Source of the DNA: Candidatus Latescibacterota bacterium
Lineage (GTDB): Bacteria > Latescibacterota > UBA2968 > UBA8231
DNA length: 64,000 nt
Direction: 5' to 3'
Assembly: GCA_964291625.2 (NCBI GenBank)
Contig: OZ220089.1
Location: forward strand, 3,776,001 to 3,840,000
Below, piece after piece: positions 1,363 through 8,384 of the stretch. Each line of letters begins with the position of its first letter. Position 1 is the stretch's first letter. The notes beneath the pieces are model-generated. The model had not been told where the DNA came from and did no database searches. It saw only the letters and a program-made list of their open reading frames with translations. The translations under genes and the position numbers were made by a program.

Positions 1363-2304
1363 ATGGAGACACAACGCTACCAACTCCGCATCAGCGGCCT
1401 GAAGGAAGACGAAGGTCAGATCAAGATGACCACTCTTCAGCGGGTCTTGGAGGCCCTCCTCACAACAGCTGAAAGGACCACCCGCTTGCTTGCAACTGGC
1501 GCAGGTAGCGGGAGGGGGGCGAAACCTCGGTGGCTGGACGCCACCATTGATTTTACGGTAACAGGATTGAGGTCCGGATCGACCACTCTCGAGGTAGAGG
1601 CTCCCCAACTTGGTGAGACGGTCTACACGCAGTTCTCCCAAGAGGACTTCTGGAACAAGGTGCCCAGCTTGACGGAGACGGCGGTCGACCTGGCCGCTCA
1701 ATCGATCAACGAGACCCAGACCGATGATCCAGTTGGAGACTACTTTGATAGTTCGGTTCTGGAAGCGATCCTCAAGTTCCGGAAAGCGGCTGGGGTGGAC
1801 GGTGTCCGCTATGAGATGATCCCCCACGGGACAGCAGGGGGAAAATTCGCCTTGGACGACAGTTCTTCCGAATGCATCAAGGAGCGGTTGAGTGACATCC
1901 CGGCTCCAAGATCGTTCATAGTTAGTGGAAGACTCGACGAGATCAAACACGGGAACGGTCGCTTTCGCCTCTTGGTGAGTCCGAGGTCCGCACTCCATGG
2001 AAGGTTGGACACTGCATCATTGAGTGTAGAGGCTTTGCGTTCCCTGTGGGGGAAACAGACCAGCGTGGAGGGGATGGTGCACTTCAAGGCCAATGGCGAA
2101 CCCCGCTTCATCGAGGCTCGCCGGATCAGTAGTCAGCTGGAAGGGGATAGCGTCTTCGAGGAGATGCCATCAGTTCAGACTCAGAAGTCGGATGACCTGT
2201 TTCCGGTGGATGGAAGGCAGTTTGGGGCCTTCGACCCCATTGAGCTTGCGGGAGCATGGCCCGGCAAGGAACCCATCGAGGAGCTCCTGGACCAGCTCGA
2301 TTGA
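1363..2304 (+). CDS. Hypothetical protein upstream of a PIN toxin; possible large antitoxin or partner
   Basis: Long ORF with less GC-biased codon usage. Acidic C-terminal tail WPGKEPIEELLDQLD. Ends 11 nt before the PIN gene. Confidence 0.7.
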   Translation: METQRYQLRISGLKEDEGQIKMTTLQRVLEALLTTAERTTRLLATGAGSGRGAKPRWLDATIDFTVTGLRSGSTTLEVEAPQLGETVYTQFSQEDFWNKVPSLTETAVDLAAQSINETQTDDPVGDYFDSSVLEAILKFRKAAGVDGVRYEMIPHGTAGGKFALDDSSSECIKERLSDIPAPRSFIVSGRLDEIKHGNGRFRLLVSPRSALHGRLDTASLSVEALRSLWGKQTSVEGMVHFKANGEPRFIEARRISSQLEGDSVFEEMPSVQTQKSDDLFPVDGRQFGAFDPIELAGAWPGKEPIEELLDQLD

Positions 2305-2315
2305 GTCATCTGTTC

Positions 2316-2786
2316 ATGGCACGCTTCCTCCTCGACACCAACCTGCTGCTCGGCTTCACCCGGGAGGCACCATGGGCTATGCGGGCTCGCAGAGAGTTCA
2401 ATCTCGGAGACCGGGAAACGATGGTCTTTACCTCTGCTATCTGCCGAGGAGAGATCCTCGCCCTTGCAGAGAAGAATGGTTGGGGTAGCACCAGACGAGC
2501 CCGCCTTGAGCAAGCTCTCAACGGGATCCCCACCCTGGACATCAACAGACCGAGGATTCTGGACGCGTACGCTCGGATTGACGCTTGGACCCATGGTAAG
2601 CCTGTGACTTCTCCGCGAAGTGCGCCGCCGCCCAAGCCGGCTGTGTCGATGAACCAAAATGATCTCTGGCTTGCTGCGACGGCTCACGCAAGCGGGGCGA
2701 CACTCCTGTCCACAGATACAGACTTCGCACATCTGGACGGCATATGGCTGAGGTTCGTCTATGTAGATCAACAAGGGCTGAGTTGA
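2316..2786 (+). CDS. vapC: PIN-domain (VapC-like) ribonuclease toxin
   Basis: LLDTN at the N-terminus, GE, NDLWLAATA and LLSTDTDF: the acidic PIN active-site pattern. Confidence 0.85.
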   Translation: MARFLLDTNLLLGFTREAPWAMRARREFNLGDRETMVFTSAICRGEILALAEKNGWGSTRRARLEQALNGIPTLDINRPRILDAYARIDAWTHGKPVTSPRSAPPPKPAVSMNQNDLWLAATAHASGATLLSTDTDFAHLDGIWLRFVYVDQQGLS

Positions 2787-2848
2787 TCATCGAAGTCTCA
2801 GAAGACACGCTGCCGAACATGACGGCCGGGGGACTTGAAAGAGCCTGA

Positions 2849-2877
2849 TTGACGAAGTTCGGTCACCTCCTTACCCT
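2849..2877 (+). promoter_or_regulatory. Sigma70-like promoter for the aspS leader
   Basis: TTGACG (2849-2854), 17-nt spacer, TACCCT (2872-2877, TAnnnT). Confidence 0.55.
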
Positions 2878-2880
2878 CGA

Positions 2881-2973
2881 ATGACCATGACCACCCGTCA
2901 GAACGCCTTCACGCAGGACAATCCGACCAACTCGGGCGATAATAATCCGCCCGCCCCATCACGCGTGTTCTGA
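2881..2973 (+). CDS. Putative Asn/Asp-rich attenuator leader peptide ([30 protein letters not shown]); alternative start at 2887
   Basis: 30-codon ORF with 5 Asn and 2 Asp codons, including tandem GAT-AAT-AAT at 2938-2946. Its 3' end overlaps the antiterminator strand. Confidence 0.7.
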
Positions 2974-3006
2974 CGACCCGCTCCAACTCCGATCCAGGAG
3001 ATCCCG

Positions 3007-3040
3007 ACCCGTCGCGAACACGCATCGCGGCGGGTTTTTT
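3007..3040 (+). terminator. Intrinsic terminator (attenuator) in the aspS 5' leader
   Basis: 11-bp stem ACCCGTCGCGA / TCGCGGCGGGT (one G-U pair), 7-nt loop, then TTTTTT, ending 33 nt before the aspS ATG. Confidence 0.85.
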
Positions 3041-3073
3041 CGTGCCCATTCCGCAACCGGGAGACCGACTGAC

Positions 3074-4834
3074 ATGCATCCCTATCGCACGCACACATGC
3101 GGCGAGCTCCGCAGGCATCACGCGGGCCGGACCGTTCGCCTGAGCGGCTGGGTCCACCGCAGGAGGGACCACGGCGGCGTGCTCTTCCTGGACCTGCGCG
3201 ACCACTACGGCATCACCCAGCTCGTGGTCTCTCCGGAGAGCGACTTCGCCGCCAATGCGGCCAGGGTCCCCCGCGAGTCGGTGATCCGCGCCGAGGGCGA
3301 GGTGCGCGAACGGTCTCCCGAGGCGGTCAACAGGGCCATGGAGACCGGAGAGGTGGAGATCGCCGTGGGCGGGCTGGAGGTGCTGTCCGCGGCCGAGCCG
3401 CTCCCCTTCCCGGTGGCGGAGGAGACCGAGACAGGGGAGGGCCTGCGGCTGTCCTATCGATTTCTGGACTTGCGTCGCGCCGGGCTGCATCGGCGGATCC
3501 AGCTCCGCTCGGAGGTGATCGCCAGCATCCGGCGGCGCATGACGGCGATGGGCTTCGCCGAGTTCCAGACCCCGGTGCTCACCAGCAGCTCGCCCGAGGG
3601 AGCGCGCGACTACCTCGTGCCGAGCCGCCTCTACCCCGGCCGCTTCTACGCCCTGCCCCAGTCGCCGCAGCAGTTCAAGCAGCTGCTGATGGTCTCCGGC
3701 TTCGACCGCTACTTCCAGATCGCGCCCTGCTTCCGCGACGAGGATGCCCGGGCCGACCGCTCCCCCGGGGAGCACTACCAGTGCGACCTGGAGATGGCCT
3801 TCGTCGAGCAGGAGGACGTCTTGGCCGTGGTCGAGGAGCTGTTCTCCGGTCTGTTCCGGGAGTTCACCGACTGGCAGGTGACCGCCCAGCCCTTCCCCCG
3901 TTTCTCCCATGCCGAGGCGATGCTGCGCTTCGGCACGGACAAGCCGGACCTGCGCTTCGGGCTCGAGATCCAGGACCTGTCACACATTTTCGCGGAATCC
4001 TCATTCAGAATGTTCCGGGGAATGGTCGAGAAAGGTGGGGTCGTGCGCGCCCTGTGCGTTCCCGGACTCGAGGCCCGGCCGCGCTCGCTCTTCGACGGTC
4101 TCGAGGCGTTCGTGAAGGACTCGGGCGGTCAGGGGCTGGCCTGGCTCATCAGCGGGGCTGAGCCCACGGGGTCGATCGCCGCGGCCCTGGAAGAGAGCAC
4201 GATCCAACGCATCACCGAGGCGTGCTCGGCCGGCCCGGGGTCGGCGGTCTTCCTCATCGCGGGATCGCCGGAGGAGGCGCCGAACCTGGCGGGACGGCTG
4301 CGCCTGCATCTGGCGGACCGGCTCGACCTGCGCCGGGAGGGGTGCTACGAATTCTGCTGGATCGTCGACTTCCCGATGTACGAGTGGGACGAGGAACGGG
4401 ACTGCGCCGCCTTCTCGCACAACCCCTTCTCCATGCCCCAGGGCGGGATGGAGGCCCTGGAGACGCGGCCACCCCTGGAGATCAAGGCGTACCAGTACGA
4501 CATCGTCTGCAACGGCGTGGAGCTGTCGAGCGGCGCCATCCGCAACCACCGTCCGGACATCATGTACAAGGCCTTCGAGATCGCCGGGTACCCTCGCCAG
4601 GAGGTGGAGCGCCGGTTCGGGTGCATGATCCGCGCCCTGCACTACGGCGCTCCGCCCCACGGCGGCATCGCCCCGGGCATCGACCGCATCGTCATGCTCT
4701 TGGCGGACGAGCTGAACATCCGGGAGGTGATCGCCTTCCCCATGAACCAGCACGCCCAGGACCCGCTCATGGGGGCTCCGGGGGAGGTCTCCGCCGAGCA
4801 GCTCCGAGAGCTTCACCTGGCGGTGCGGGATTGA
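3074..4834 (+). CDS. aspS: Aspartate--tRNA ligase, probably non-discriminating (Asp/Asn)
   Basis: [57 protein letters not shown] and [14 protein letters not shown]. His in RRDHGG is the residue typical of non-discriminating AspRS. Confidence 0.97.
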
Positions 4835-4917
4835 CCGCCCCATCCCCCTTGCCACTGTTCCACACCCCCCTCGACCTTCGACCCCTCTCCCGCATGAACC
4901 GAGGAAGAAGGTGAGGG

Positions 4918-5450
4918 ATGACCGAAGCCCGAAAGACCGTCAGGCTGTACGAAGCCCTGGAGCTGCGGGCCGAGTACGACGGCCGCATCAAGACCCTGCG
5001 CGACTGCCTGCCCGAGTCGCGCCAGAACCGGGGGCTGTTCTCCCGGGACAACGACTCCTCGCGCCGGCCGGCTCCCGGCTTCAGCCTCTCCGGGGCGCGG
5101 GACCAGCTGCGCGCCCTCGAGTTCAAGCGCCGCAAGCTGAACGCGGCGATCCAGCGGGCCAACTTCGAGCACCGCCTGGAGCACGAGGGGGATGACCTGA
5201 GCCTCACCGAGGCCCTGGAGACGCGCAAGGCGCTCAACGAGCGCCTCGGGGAGCTGCACACGCAGGTCGTCGACTCCGCGTACGAGCGCGTCCTCCACAA
5301 GGAGGAGCGGGACATCGTCGAGGAGAGCGAGCTGCCCTACGCCGACTGCCTCACCCGGCTGGACGAGGCGCGCGTCGAGTTCCGGCGGCTCAACCGGCGG
5401 ATCCGGCGGCCTCCTTCGAAGTCGAGGTGGAGTTCGCCGACGAGCGGTAG
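4918..5450 (+). CDS. DIP1984/DUF6847-like helical protein; apparent 1-nt frameshift near 5405, true stop probably TAG at 5448-5450
   Basis: Internally duplicated motifs RLYEALELRAE / SLTEALETRKA and RKLNAAIQRANF / RRLNRRIR(AASF). Adding one G restores the ending AASFEVEVEFADER*. Confidence 0.7.
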
Positions 5451-5457
5451 CACCTCC

Positions 5458-5652
5458 GAACGGAAGAGACAGGGGAGCAAGCGCGACTGCGCCGGCGACG
5501 GCGCATAGCCCAGGAGCGGCGCGCACTGCGACGCGTGTCTCGGGGATGACAACCTACGGTCCGGCCAAGCCGCTCAACGACTCAGCGGCAGACCCCTGAG
5601 CACGGGCAGCCCCTCAGCGAAACAGCCACAGGGCTCCGCGTCTCTTCCGTTC
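5458..5652 (+). ncRNA. Candidate structured ncRNA (~195 nt) downstream of the DIP1984-like gene
   Basis: Perfect 13-bp closing stem GAACGGAAGAGAC (5458-5470) / GTCTCTTCCGTTC (5640-5652). Internal 7-bp hairpin TGCGCCG-GCGA-CGGCGCA with a GNRA loop (5488-5505). ~8-nt periodic tract at 5568-5631. Confidence 0.6.
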
Positions 5653-5864: not shown

Positions 5865-8384
5865 ATGCACCGACTCATCGCGGTGCTGGCCGCCGCGCTC
5901 CTCTTCGCAGGGGCCGTGGGCGCCGGCGCCGACGAACAGCACTCTCACACGGACACCAGCGATGCCCGCATGGAGGGCTGGATGGCCCATCCCCAGCGCA
6001 CGGCCCGCGCCCTGCGGGCGGAGACGCCGCCGCGCCTCGACGGGGTCCTCGACGAGGAGGTCTGGCTGCGCGCCCCGGTTCACGAGGGGTTCACCCAGAG
6101 CGACCCGGACCAGGGCGAGCCGGCATCGCTGCGCACGACCTTCCAGGTGGCCTACGACGACGACGCCCTCTACATCGGCGGCATCTGCTACGACGATCCA
6201 GACAGCGTCACCGCCCGGCTGGCGCGGCGGGACGAGTGGCGCGAGCGCGACTTCTTCGAGGTCAGCCTCGACCCCCACCACGACCACCAGACGGGGGTCT
6301 GGTTCACCGTCGGGCCCTCGGGCTGGCTCGGGGACGGGATCCTCTACAACGACGAGGACTACGACGACGGCTGGGACAGCGTCGCCGAGGTGGCCACGGC
6401 GAGGCGCGCCGACGGCTGGAGCCTGGAGCTGAAGATCCCCTACCACGTCCTGCGCTTCGGCGAGCAGGAGACCTACACCTGGGGGATCAACGTCTTCCGC
6501 AAGGTCTCCCGCCGCGCCGAGTGGACGGCGTGGAGCTTCACGCCCCGGGGGGTCACCGGCTACGCCTCGCGCTTCGGACACCTGGAGGGGATCGAGGGCA
6601 TCCGGCCGCACCGCAGCCTCGAGGTCCTGCCTTTCGCCCTCGGCCGCGGCACCCTGTCGCAGGGAGCCGCCGGCGATAACGACCTGTTCTCCTCGGCCGG
6701 CGTCGACCTGCGCTACGGCCTGTCGTCCAACATCTCCCTCAACGCCACCGTCAACCCGGACTTCGGCCAGGTCGAGGGCGACCCGGCGGTGCTCAACCTG
6801 GGGGTATTCGAGACCTTCCTCCGCGAGCGCCGGCCCTTCTTTCTGGAGGGCATCCAGATCTTCGAGTCGCCCGGGCCGTTCATCGTCAGCATCAACAAGC
6901 CCTCCACCCTGTTCCACTCGCGGCGCATCGGCCGGGCGCCCTCCCGCTTCGACCTGCCCGACGACAGCGACGAGGTCGAGCGGCCGGAAAACACCACGAT
7001 CCTCGGCGCCGCCAAGATCTCGGGAAAGACCGCCGGGCGCACCGCCTTCGGCCTGCTCAACGCCGTCACCGGCCGCGAGCGGGCCCTCGTCGAACAGCGC
7101 CTCACCGTCGCCGAGACGGGCCTGGTCGACACGGTGCGCCGCCGCGTCGAGGTCGAGCCCCTCACCAACTACTTCATCGGCCGAGTGCAGCAGGATCTGC
7201 TCACCAGCTCCACCGCCGGGGCCCAGCTCACCGCGGTCAACGGCGCCGGCTTCGAGCCCGCCTACGTCGGGGCCGGGGACGTGCACCTCAGGTGGGGGGA
7301 CAACGCCTACCGGCTCTACAGCCGCTTCGCCGCCAGCCTCGCCGGGCAGGAGGAGGAGCGGGGCAGCGGCTGGGAGGGGGCCCTCTACTTCCAGAAGTCG
7401 GGGGGCGCCTTCGGCGGTCAGGCCTACATGGACGCCAACTCGCCCGGCTTCGAGGCCAACGACCTGGGCTACATGCGGCGCAACGACCGCATTCAGGCCG
7501 GCGTCCACGTCTACCACGACAGGCTCGACCCCTGGTGGCTGGCCCGCCGCTCCGGGTTCAACCTCAATGCCTGGACCCACTGGAACTTCGACGGCGAGCG
7601 CATCTGGCGGGGCGTCAACTTCAACACCTGGAACAACCTCCACAACTACTGGGGGTTCTGGATGGGCGTCAGCCGCAACCTCGCCGCCGTCGACGACCTG
7701 GTCACCCGCGGCGGCCCCCCGATGGTCTCACCGGCCAGCACCTGGATCGGCATGAACGTGTGGGCCGACGACCGCAAGCCGGTGAGCGGCCGGCTCTGGT
7801 CGAACCTCAGGTGGGGCCGGGGCGGCGACAACCTGGGCACGTGGGTGGGGTTCAACCTCGAGTTGCGCCCCATGTCGCGGCTGTCCCTGGAGGTCGGGCC
7901 GGGCTACGGCTACGACCGCAACTTCGCCCAGTGGGTGGAGAGCAGCGACGACGACGGCGACGGCGAGGACGACCGCTTCGTCTTCGGCGAGCTGGAGAGC
8001 CGCGTCCTCGAGGTCGGCCTGCGCGGCGACTGGGCCTTCACGCCGGCCCTGAGCCTGCAGCTCTACCTGCAGCCCTTCGTGACCACCGGCGACTACGGCG
8101 CCATCAAGGAGCTGGCGAGGCCGCGCTCGTACGAGTTTCTCCCCTACGACGGCCTCGAGGAGAACCCCGACTTCCACCGCCGCGCCCTGCGATCCAACCT
8201 GGTCCTGCGCTGGGAGTACCGGCCCGGCAGCACCCTCTTCGCCGTCTGGCAGCAGAGCCGGGACCGCGACTTCGACGGGGTCCGCGACCCCCGGTTCCGG
8301 CCCGCCGGCGACCTGACCCGCGCCTTCGCCGACGACGGCGACAGCATCTTCCTGATCAAGCTCAACCGCTGGTTCGGGCTGTAG
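5865..8384 (+). CDS. Secreted/outer-membrane protein with CBM9-like N-terminal domain and DUF5916 domain
   Basis: Signal peptide; P.LDGVLDE.VW; YDDDALYIG; W..ELKIP; TVNPDFGQVE.D; E.RPFFLEG; C-terminal NLVLRWEYRPGSTLF.VW. Confidence 0.85.
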   Translation: MHRLIAVLAAALLFAGAVGAGADEQHSHTDTSDARMEGWMAHPQRTARALRAETPPRLDGVLDEEVWLRAPVHEGFTQSDPDQGEPASLRTTFQVAYDDDALYIGGICYDDPDSVTARLARRDEWRERDFFEVSLDPHHDHQTGVWFTVGPSGWLGDGILYNDEDYDDGWDSVAEVATARRADGWSLELKIPYHVLRFGEQETYTWGINVFRKVSRRAEWTAWSFTPRGVTGYASRFGHLEGIEGIRPHRSLEVLPFALGRGTLSQGAAGDNDLFSSAGVDLRYGLSSNISLNATVNPDFGQVEGDPAVLNLGVFETFLRERRPFFLEGIQIFESPGPFIVSINKPSTLFHSRRIGRAPSRFDLPDDSDEVERPENTTILGAAKISGKTAGRTAFGLLNAVTGRERALVEQRLTVAETGLVDTVRRRVEVEPLTNYFIGRVQQDLLTSSTAGAQLTAVNGAGFEPAYVGAGDVHLRWGDNAYRLYSRFAASLAGQEEERGSGWEGALYFQKSGGAFGGQAYMDANSPGFEANDLGYMRRNDRIQAGVHVYHDRLDPWWLARRSGFNLNAWTHWNFDGERIWRGVNFNTWNNLHNYWGFWMGVSRNLAAVDDLVTRGGPPMVSPASTWIGMNVWADDRKPVSGRLWSNLRWGRGGDNLGTWVGFNLELRPMSRLSLEVGPGYGYDRNFAQWVESSDDDGDGEDDRFVFGELESRVLEVGLRGDWAFTPALSLQLYLQPFVTTGDYGAIKELARPRSYEFLPYDGLEENPDFHRRALRSNLVLRWEYRPGSTLFAVWQQSRDRDFDGVRDPRFRPAGDLTRAFADDGDSIFLIKLNRWFGL

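Follow-up and report, generated by a model that had tools for sequence, protein, structure and literature searches.

A probable asparagine-codon leader attenuator upstream of a second aspartyl-tRNA synthetase gene in Candidatus Latescibacterota

Layout of the region upstream of aspS2

The stretch of DNA considered here (the window) is 64,000 nucleotides (nt) long and comes from a genome of Candidatus Latescibacterota, referred to below as G000 (5.9 Mb in two contigs, 95% complete). Our subject is a short region of its forward strand, from 2849 to 3073, which leads into a gene for an aspartyl-tRNA synthetase (AspRS), and which an earlier note, made from the letters alone, had read as a transcription attenuator that senses Asn and Asp through a leader peptide. 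The gene itself (3074..4834) encodes a bacterial-type AspRS of 586 residues with a GAD domain, as judged from domain and family profile matches. The note was right to place an AspRS gene here, but it is a second paralog rather than the sole aspS of the genome: another copy, aspS1, is common to all 40 relatives searched and lies on the other contig of G000, and the two are 45% identical. We call the gene downstream of the region aspS2. The evidence set out below, much of it comparative, indicates that aspS2 is very likely controlled by a ribosome-mediated leader-peptide attenuator that responds to Asn.

The region begins with a promoter made up of a -35 box, TTGACG (2849..2854), and a -10 box, TACCCT (2872..2877), separated by a spacer of 17 nt. 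Both boxes are read from the letters and lie where the earlier note had put them. The units that share the design found in this window, which we call type A, bear the promoter out: 23 of 25 such units have TTGAC 36-39 nt ahead of the leader ATG, and the orthologous -10 boxes read TATCTT, TACACT or TATTTT. The -10 box of the window matches the consensus at three of six positions, which is why a consensus promoter scan missed the promoter at 2849-2877. The same scan gave a weak candidate at 2915-2943, which we set aside in favour of 2849-2877 on the grounds of conservation.

Next comes the leader open reading frame (ORF). It had been described as a frame of 30 codons at 2881-2973 with five Asn and two Asp codons and the series Asp-Asn-Asn at 2938-2946; all of this stands except the start. 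ATG 2881 is missing in the relative G002, whereas ATG 2887 aligns with the starts of all type-A leaders, and because of this difference in conservation a leader of 28 codons (2887..2973, stop TGA at 2971-2973, from the ORF list and the ortholog alignment) is the more likely. Its most prominent feature is a tandem pair of Asn codons, AAT AAT (2941..2946), which follows directly on the Asp codon GAT (2938-2940) and belongs to the best-conserved columns of the leader alignment. The other Asn codons are at 2902-2904, 2920-2922 and 2929-2931, and a second Asp codon is at 2917-2919. From the end of the -10 box to the leader ATG there are only 8-10 nt in type-A units (9 nt for ATG 2887), and none of these units has a Shine-Dalgarno sequence in this interval; aspS2 itself has one, GGAG at 3060..3063, 10 nt before its ATG, with GGAGG at the same place in orthologs. 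Since the -10 box stands so close to an ATG that lacks a Shine-Dalgarno sequence, the simplest reading is that the transcript starts at or beside ATG 2887 and that the leader mRNA is probably leaderless.

Between the leader and aspS2 lies an intrinsic terminator (3006..3040), detected by a terminator scan as a 12-pair hairpin at 3006-3036 (-20.9 kcal/mol) with a run of six T at 3035-3040. The order given in the earlier note, a terminator and then aspS, is therefore the one found, and the scan returned no other terminator-like site within 2000-5500.

The RNA of this region can pair in more than one way. It had been noted that GCGTGTTC (2963-2970) is complementary to GAACACGC (3016-3023), with GACG (2972-2975) and CGTC (3010-3013) extending the match, and that the resulting antiterminator and the terminator would exclude each other. 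The complementarity is present just as described, and it exceeds nearly all that chance provides: when the last 36 nt of the leader plus 8 were set against the terminator 5' arm and loop, the duplex reached -21.2 kcal/mol, whereas 500 mononucleotide shuffles averaged -9.8 and only one of them was as low. The minimum-free-energy fold of 2884-3073 (z = -2.6) also pairs 2896-2906 with 2965-2975, a helix that goes beyond the earlier note and would act as an anti-antiterminator. Three stretches of the RNA thus have alternative partners in the models. Segment 1 (2896..2906), defined by the fold, is the 5' strand of the anti-antiterminator and contains the Asn codon 2902-2904. Segment 2 (2963..2975), defined by the letters, the fold and the duplex energy, includes the leader stop codon and can pair with either segment 1 or segment 3. 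Segment 3 (3010..3023), defined by duplex energy and alignment, would contribute the 5' arm and loop to the terminator or, in the alternative fold, the 3' strand to the antiterminator. Because the fold adds a 1:2 helix to the 2:3 and 3:4 helices, the predicted layout is the four-segment one known from trp attenuators.

The placing of the codons fits such a layout, as the geometry sketched in the earlier note would have it. The Asn pair stands 17-19 nt before segment 2 (19 nt for the last Asn codon, at 2944) and the stop codon lies within segment 2; given the footprint of a ribosome, one stalled at the Asn codons would leave segment 2 accessible and one at the stop codon would cover it. An Rfam scan of 2600-3300 at E <= 10 found no T-box and no leader family. 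It returned two matches, a partial, terminator-like one to CrfA (E 0.87) and one to a CRISPR repeat (E 7.5), and both were dismissed as chance.

Recurrence and variety of the unit among relatives

aspS2 is present in 33 of the 168 genomes of the phylum, all belonging to one family, and we surveyed up to 460 nt before each copy, at 34 distinct loci. A unit was counted where a short ORF with at least three Asn codons, including an Asn pair, is followed by a T-run within 110 nt. By this filter every one of the 32 aspS2 loci with at least 300 nt of upstream sequence has a unit, for a total of 47 units and 44 different peptides; the two other loci end at a contig edge, and one of them still has the 3' part of a unit. 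The same filter found none at 92 control aspS loci with upstream sequence of 300 nt or more, which comprised aspS1 genes of Latescibacterota and aspS homologs from other phyla, 48-62% identical. The latter are the nearest aspS relatives beyond the clade, mostly from Alphaproteobacteria, Planctomycetota, Fibrobacterota and Bacillota, and none has a fitting Asn-rich leader. Finally, both strands of the whole 5.9-Mb G000 were scanned for an ORF of 10-50 residues with at least three Asn, including a pair, and with a stable hairpin and T5 within 110 nt, and this site alone was returned. The conserved N/D-rich ORF that had been anticipated upstream of related aspS genes is thus found, as an Asn-rich one, and the contrast between 32 of 32 loci and 0 of 92 controls lends strong comparative support to the core of the earlier proposal, a leader-peptide attenuator with Asn codons before aspS.

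The units do not all derive from one recognisable design. At least four unrelated designs can be told apart; the units comprise types A, B and C and further variants in G117 and G167. Type A, to which the window belongs, has a peptide ending in ...NNP.AP.RVF; type B peptides end in ...NNDDNNPAIRARWRWP and, where two units stand in series, have an AGGAG of their own before the ATG; type C units belong to genus g13. Many g14 genomes, as well as G011, G123 and G167, have two units in series. In two g13 genomes (locus L140 in G165 and locus L141 in G163) the Asn tail is the in-frame end of an upstream ORF, about 180-86 nt before aspS2; the upstream ORF ends like a class II lysyl-tRNA synthetase, and the sensing leader appears to have been fused to the preceding gene. 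From one design to the next, the remainder of the peptide and the RNA segments differ and the Asn clusters persist. What all designs keep is a cluster of Asn codons, a terminator 20-33 nt before aspS2, and a leader end complementary to the 5' arm of the terminator, a match that reaches significance (p <= 0.022) in 8 of 11 representative units. A precursor of a ribosomally synthesised and post-translationally modified peptide, or some other functional small protein, was considered and rejected, as the peptide is not conserved between types and only the Asn clusters and RNA segments are kept. We also observed, in run X1, a DNA contig in which the type-A terminator (at 3040) continues into the start of a type-B leader and not into the sequence of the window; one-unit and two-unit strains apparently coexist in that sample.

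Within type A, the structural segments and the codons AAT AAT AAY are nearly invariant at all codon positions in the 25 units; the spacer and the central part of the peptide differ in both sequence and length. The expectation that the stems would covary is met in part. In the antiterminator, 98% of cells are paired and there are two compensatory UA-to-CG pairs (in G017 and G155), a level that 4 of 500 shuffles reach; the terminator (99.7% of cells paired in the 25 sequences, almost invariant) and the 1:2 helix (86.9%) have no compensatory pairs. Type B is 93% identical overall. Because the covariation within each type is thin, the argument rests on the occurrence of independent designs that follow the same logic.

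Conservation of the structural segments at the nucleotide level, third codon positions included, points to a constraint on RNA rather than on peptide. It could be taken to mean that the element works without a ribosome, for instance as an RNA switch that senses tRNA like a T-box, as a metabolite riboswitch or as a leader bound by a protein, and that the ORF is incidental. This we consider very unlikely, given that at least four designs of unrelated sequence retain an open frame with an Asn cluster and place its stop codon within segment 2 or directly behind it, and that type B carries its own AGGAG before the ATG. Moreover, no large conserved structured domain is seen besides the three predicted helices, and Rfam offers no T-box and no family beyond the terminator-like match.

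The association with aspS2 can also be followed by means of the RNA itself. A covariance model of type A, searched against 76 genomes of the family, gives 28 matches at E <= 5e-18, and 27 of these lie directly upstream of aspS2 or of its pseudogene in G007; the match in G139 is on a contig other than the one that carries aspS2 in that genome. Even where aspS2 is broken, as in G007, G021 and G013, short Asn-rich ORFs precede it. The truncated or broken genes themselves, at L145 (G007), L010 (G021), L146 (G013) and L147 (G009), could be pseudogenes or else products of misassembly. The G007 copy lacks residues 1-179, and a remnant of the leader, rich in Asn, abuts what is left; in G021 and G013 the frame is broken.

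Several observations weigh against an attenuator of this kind. First, in the long variant present in the window, a ribosome stalled at 2941-2946 would leave segment 1 exposed 35 nt behind it, unlike in the short variants of 20-23 codons, where the stalled ribosome would partly cover segment 1. Second, three of the 11 representative units (L043, L142 and L143) show no significant antiterminator complementarity in a simple shuffle test. Third, the helices of types A and B hardly vary, so that covariation amounts to the two compensatory pairs in the antiterminator. Fourth, the abundance of Asn in the leaders (19.2% of 1109 residues, compared with 1.7% in 1611 long ORFs of G000) is partly circular, the ORFs having been chosen for at least three Asn, and the fair test is the absence of units from the 92 controls. 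Fifth, contigs from an RNA library cross the terminator. They come from a relative about 96% identical, in a sponge metatranscriptome run that holds 34% of the sampled words, and cover 2767-3623, one of them, 299 nt long, spanning 2920-3218; with DNA carry-over possible and without transcript ends, they are neutral as regards termination. A second RNA run (X22) has almost no coverage of the locus. Runs labelled as sponge or marine metagenomes contain these genomes, with at least half of the sampled words in one run only.

Another contig of the RNA library begins upstream of the promoter, and a PIN-domain gene ends at 2786, 220 nt upstream. Both facts would be expected if the terminator simply marked the end of the upstream gene, or acted as a constitutive roadblock, with a short ORF in front of it by chance. 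However, the unit accompanies aspS2 even though the upstream genes differ: here it is a PIN-domain gene, while g14 has a DUF5916 gene at that place and g13 has genes resembling lysS or asd, the last two names being taken from translated C-terminal ends and not from a family search. With a promoter so widely conserved, no units among the controls and a site unique in its genome, we regard a chance arrangement as scarcely credible. A trp-type attenuator with Asn as the regulatory codons is very probably the right explanation of the region upstream of aspS2.

Proposed mechanism and probable role of AspRS2

The events that we propose are as follows. Transcription would begin about 7 nt past the -10 box, on ATG 2887 or beside it, and the leader would be translated from a leaderless 5' end. 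With Asn-tRNA(Asn) plentiful, the ribosome would reach the stop codon at 2971-2973 and mask segment 2, the terminator at 3006-3040 would form, and transcription would stop before aspS2. With Asn-tRNA(Asn) scarce, the ribosome would stall at Asn codons, mainly at AAT AAT (2941-2946), a codon rare in the genome, or at the earlier ones; segment 2, lying 17-19 nt ahead, would then be free to pair with 3010-3023, no terminator would form, and aspS2 would be transcribed. If the leader were not translated at all, pairing of segments 1 and 2 would make termination the default. AspRS2 would charge tRNA-Asn with Asp, GatCAB would convert the product to Asn-tRNA(Asn), and the attenuator would govern what gene content suggests is the only route of the cell to asparagine. 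Synthesis of tRNA-bound asparagine is probably switched on only when asparagine is short.

In the leaders AAT makes up 56% of the Asn codons, against 10.6% in the long ORFs of G000. The earlier note had gone further and proposed that both Asn and Asp are sensed, such that a stall at either codon would open the attenuator and aspS2 would answer a shortage of either charged tRNA. There is something to be said for this. Asp is the substrate of the regulated enzyme, and in several designs that are independent of one another it adjoins or interrupts the run of Asn (GDNN, NNDDNN, DNNGDNNN and HDDNN). Inside the Asn clusters Asp accounts for 23 of 53 non-Asn residues (43%), as against 3.8% outside them, though a Fisher test of this clustering overstates the signal, the sequences being related. 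Yet Asp is not enriched in the leaders overall (5.0% of residues, compared with 6.2% in long ORFs), and in the leader of the window two or more Asp in 28 codons would be expected by chance with a probability of 0.53. Asp and Asn codons are, moreover, one transition apart, and the type-A column in question holds D, N or V, which is what drift of an Asn codon would produce. Sensing of Asp in addition to Asn is thus a possibility, and one that we hold to be somewhat doubtful.

Which enzyme, then, does the attenuator control? AspRS2 contains the tRNA-synt_2 domain, an OB-fold anticodon domain and GAD, and matches the aspS_bact model at 606 bits. It is not an archaeal-type AspRS, for which the aspS_nondisc model gives 208 bits, under its cut-off of 368; both G000 enzymes are bacterial-type with GAD. 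We built a tree of 106 AspRS in which the other rows are the best matches to aspS2, two aspS2 rows having been left out because they were incompletely covered or had an internal stop, and in which the root is arbitrary. In this tree the aspS2 sequences form one clade, with a value of 99 in the Shimodaira-Hasegawa-like approximate likelihood-ratio test, on a long branch from the aspS1 clade and among mainly alphaproteobacterial enzymes. The topology makes a foreign origin of aspS2 likely.

Two positions in the AspRS of Pseudomonas aeruginosa, H31 and G82/83, are what we take to be determinants of non-discrimination, and H31 is said to have been described as such by Bernard et al. in 2006. The His of the RRDHGG motif in AspRS2 had been read in the earlier note as the mark of a non-discriminating enzyme. 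In the alignment it coincides with a His in the Asp/Asn ligase of P. aeruginosa (4wj3), where the discriminating Thermus enzyme has Leu, but aspS1 carries the same His, and the two paralogs cannot be separated by this motif. At the second position aspS2 has Glu where 4wj3 has Gly, and aspS1 has Gly. By motif, then, aspS1 is at least as non-discriminating, having both the His and the Gly, which counts against assigning that property to aspS2 in particular. Because the motifs do not decide, the role of aspS2 has to be argued from the Asn-codon leader, from gene content and from its kinship with AspRS of the alphaproteobacterial type, which are generally non-discriminating.

As for gene content, asnS, predicted to be absent, is present in G000 (479 bits, above the cut-off); GatCAB was expected, and gatB is found at 538 bits and gatA at 610 bits; glnS is also present (694 bits). 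No asnA was found in any of five aspS2 genomes. In G000 no match to asnB exceeds the cut-off, the best (E 1.5e-17) covering the amidotransferase domain only, although at 95% completeness a gene that appears absent may be unassembled. The single tRNA-Asn has the pair U1-A72 and tRNA-Asp has G1-C72; according to an excerpt of PMC1635274, it is U1-A72 that allows bacterial GatCAB to amidate the Asp carried by tRNA-Asn. Across the family, asnB is missing from 25 of 33 genomes with aspS2 and from 14 of 43 without it, counts that are to be read with the relatedness of the genomes in mind and with the asnB family model also matching paralogs of other roles. Conversely, a gene of the asnB family is present in 8 of the 33 genomes with aspS2, and aspS2 and asnB are both missing from 14 genomes. 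The inverse relation of the two genes is a tendency, not a rule. With these points on both sides, we think it fairly likely that aspS2 serves tRNA-dependent asparagine synthesis.

The separate grouping of aspS2 and the native aspS1 admits another use for the gene. Second copies of aminoacyl-tRNA synthetases of foreign origin are often resistance genes, and aspS2 might be a spare AspRS for self-protection, insensitive to an AspRS inhibitor and induced when the housekeeping enzyme is blocked; if aspS1 were non-discriminating, its inhibition would lower Asn-tRNA(Asn) and so open the attenuator. A sensor of AspRS inhibition would, however, be expected to use Asp codons, and these are not enriched. 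Asparagine supply is what the inverse relation with asnB suggests, and no biosynthetic cluster is seen beside aspS2, whose neighbours are PIN, DUF6847 and DUF5916 genes. We give a resistance function very little credence.

The neighbourhood of the unit may be described briefly. Directly upstream, a PIN-domain gene (2316-2786, forward strand; PF01850, E 1e-12) likely encodes a VapC-type toxin, and it is preceded by an overlapping ORF of 317 residues (1351-2304) with no Pfam match. Downstream of aspS2, on the same strand, are genes for a DUF6847 protein (4918-5508) and a DUF5916/CBM9 protein (5865-8384). In genus g14 a DUF5916 gene with the same C-terminal end is found upstream of the attenuator, which means that genes have been rearranged around the unit.

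Related leaders and known attenuators

Asn is not the only amino acid for which leaders of this kind are seen in the family. In G000 itself (G000:C1:4278821, forward strand) a short ORF with seven consecutive Cys codons is followed by a hairpin of -26.8 kcal/mol and a T-run, directly before a cysH-like gene (for 3'-phosphoadenosine-5'-phosphosulfate reductase, as judged from the N-terminal sequence), and is a probable Cys leader attenuator. In G136 (L148, 1313-1450; contig G136:C149) a Gln-rich leader with the series QQQRQQQ, a hairpin and a T-run lies upstream of glnS (TIGR00440, 693 bits). A Gln-rich ORF with a T-run precedes glnS at 9 of 30 family loci examined (among them L148-L158). We saw no leaders before the glnS, asnS, aspS1, gatA and gatB of G000 itself. 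It is tempting to generalise that the family runs aminoacyl-tRNA synthetase attenuators whose leader codons name the tRNA served, Gln for glnS and Asn for aspS2, that AspRS2 is a bacterial-type enzyme of asparagine biosynthesis specialised for tRNA-Asn, and that the Asp codons are a second input which reports the precursor; taken as a whole, we regard this generalisation as rather improbable.

Leader-peptide attenuation is a textbook mechanism, described for only a handful of amino acids. Like the classical attenuators of Escherichia coli (trp, his, leu, thr, ilv and pheA), the unit before aspS2 has regulatory codons gathered in a short ORF that stops within segment 2 or close to it, 2:3 and 3:4 helices that exclude each other, and an intrinsic terminator ahead of the structural gene; the fold suggests a 1:2 helix as well, which would compete with 2:3. 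The closest likeness in the kind of gene controlled is pheST of E. coli, where a leader-peptide attenuator acts on an aminoacyl-tRNA synthetase gene. Unlike in the classical cases, the codons here are Asn codons, and they stand for the end product of a pathway and not for Asp, the amino acid of the enzyme. Also unlike them, the leader is probably leaderless, different units occur in tandem in many relatives, and an Asn tail is in places fused in-frame to an upstream gene. The mechanism itself is classical; what is new relative to the known attenuators is the amino acid sensed, the kind of gene, the mismatch between the codons and the amino acid of the enzyme, and the variety of forms.

Full-text literature searches gave no attenuator with an Asn-codon leader, though Russian work in comparative genomics on attenuation of aminoacyl-tRNA synthetase operons could hold a precedent. 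In Clostridium acetobutylicum, a study of 2012 in the Journal of Biological Chemistry reportedly found that a tRNA-Asn T-box controls the indirect route to Asn-tRNA(Asn) and that the organism also has AsnRS. The likeness lies in the induction of indirect-route genes at low tRNA-Asn charging in the presence of AsnRS. The sensors differ, as that of C. acetobutylicum is a T-box RNA that reads uncharged tRNA, and that proposed here is a translating ribosome, at a locus with no T-box match. A Shewanella paper lists, in an excerpt, an aspS 5' motif as 'tRNA synthetase leader', and the excerpt describes no leader peptide.

As regards gene content, the nearest parallel is with Deinococcus radiodurans and Thermus thermophilus, in which, as an excerpt of PMC4206432 has it, an extra AspRS and GatCAB make Asn on tRNA beside AsnRS and GlnRS and no asparagine synthetase is present. 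The second AspRS of these organisms is archaeal-type according to the title of a paper cited in PMC4206432, whereas both enzymes here are bacterial-type with GAD. The likeness thus extends to the set of genes and not to the type of the additional enzyme. Leader-peptide regulation is not known to operate in the two-AspRS systems of Deinococcus and Thermus, a point on which no specific search was made.

The units before aspS2 bring together, in a single gene family, features that are rarely found in combination: replacement by unrelated designs, tandem units, a probably leaderless ORF and fusion of the sensing tail to an upstream gene. They also suggest a way, based on sequence alone, to spot AspRS genes dedicated to this pathway in uncultured bacteria. 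For the family itself, the setting of Asn codons in the leader against an enzyme that activates Asp provides a regulatory argument that the extra AspRS works for tRNA-Asn, in which case asparagine would be made on the tRNA, on demand.

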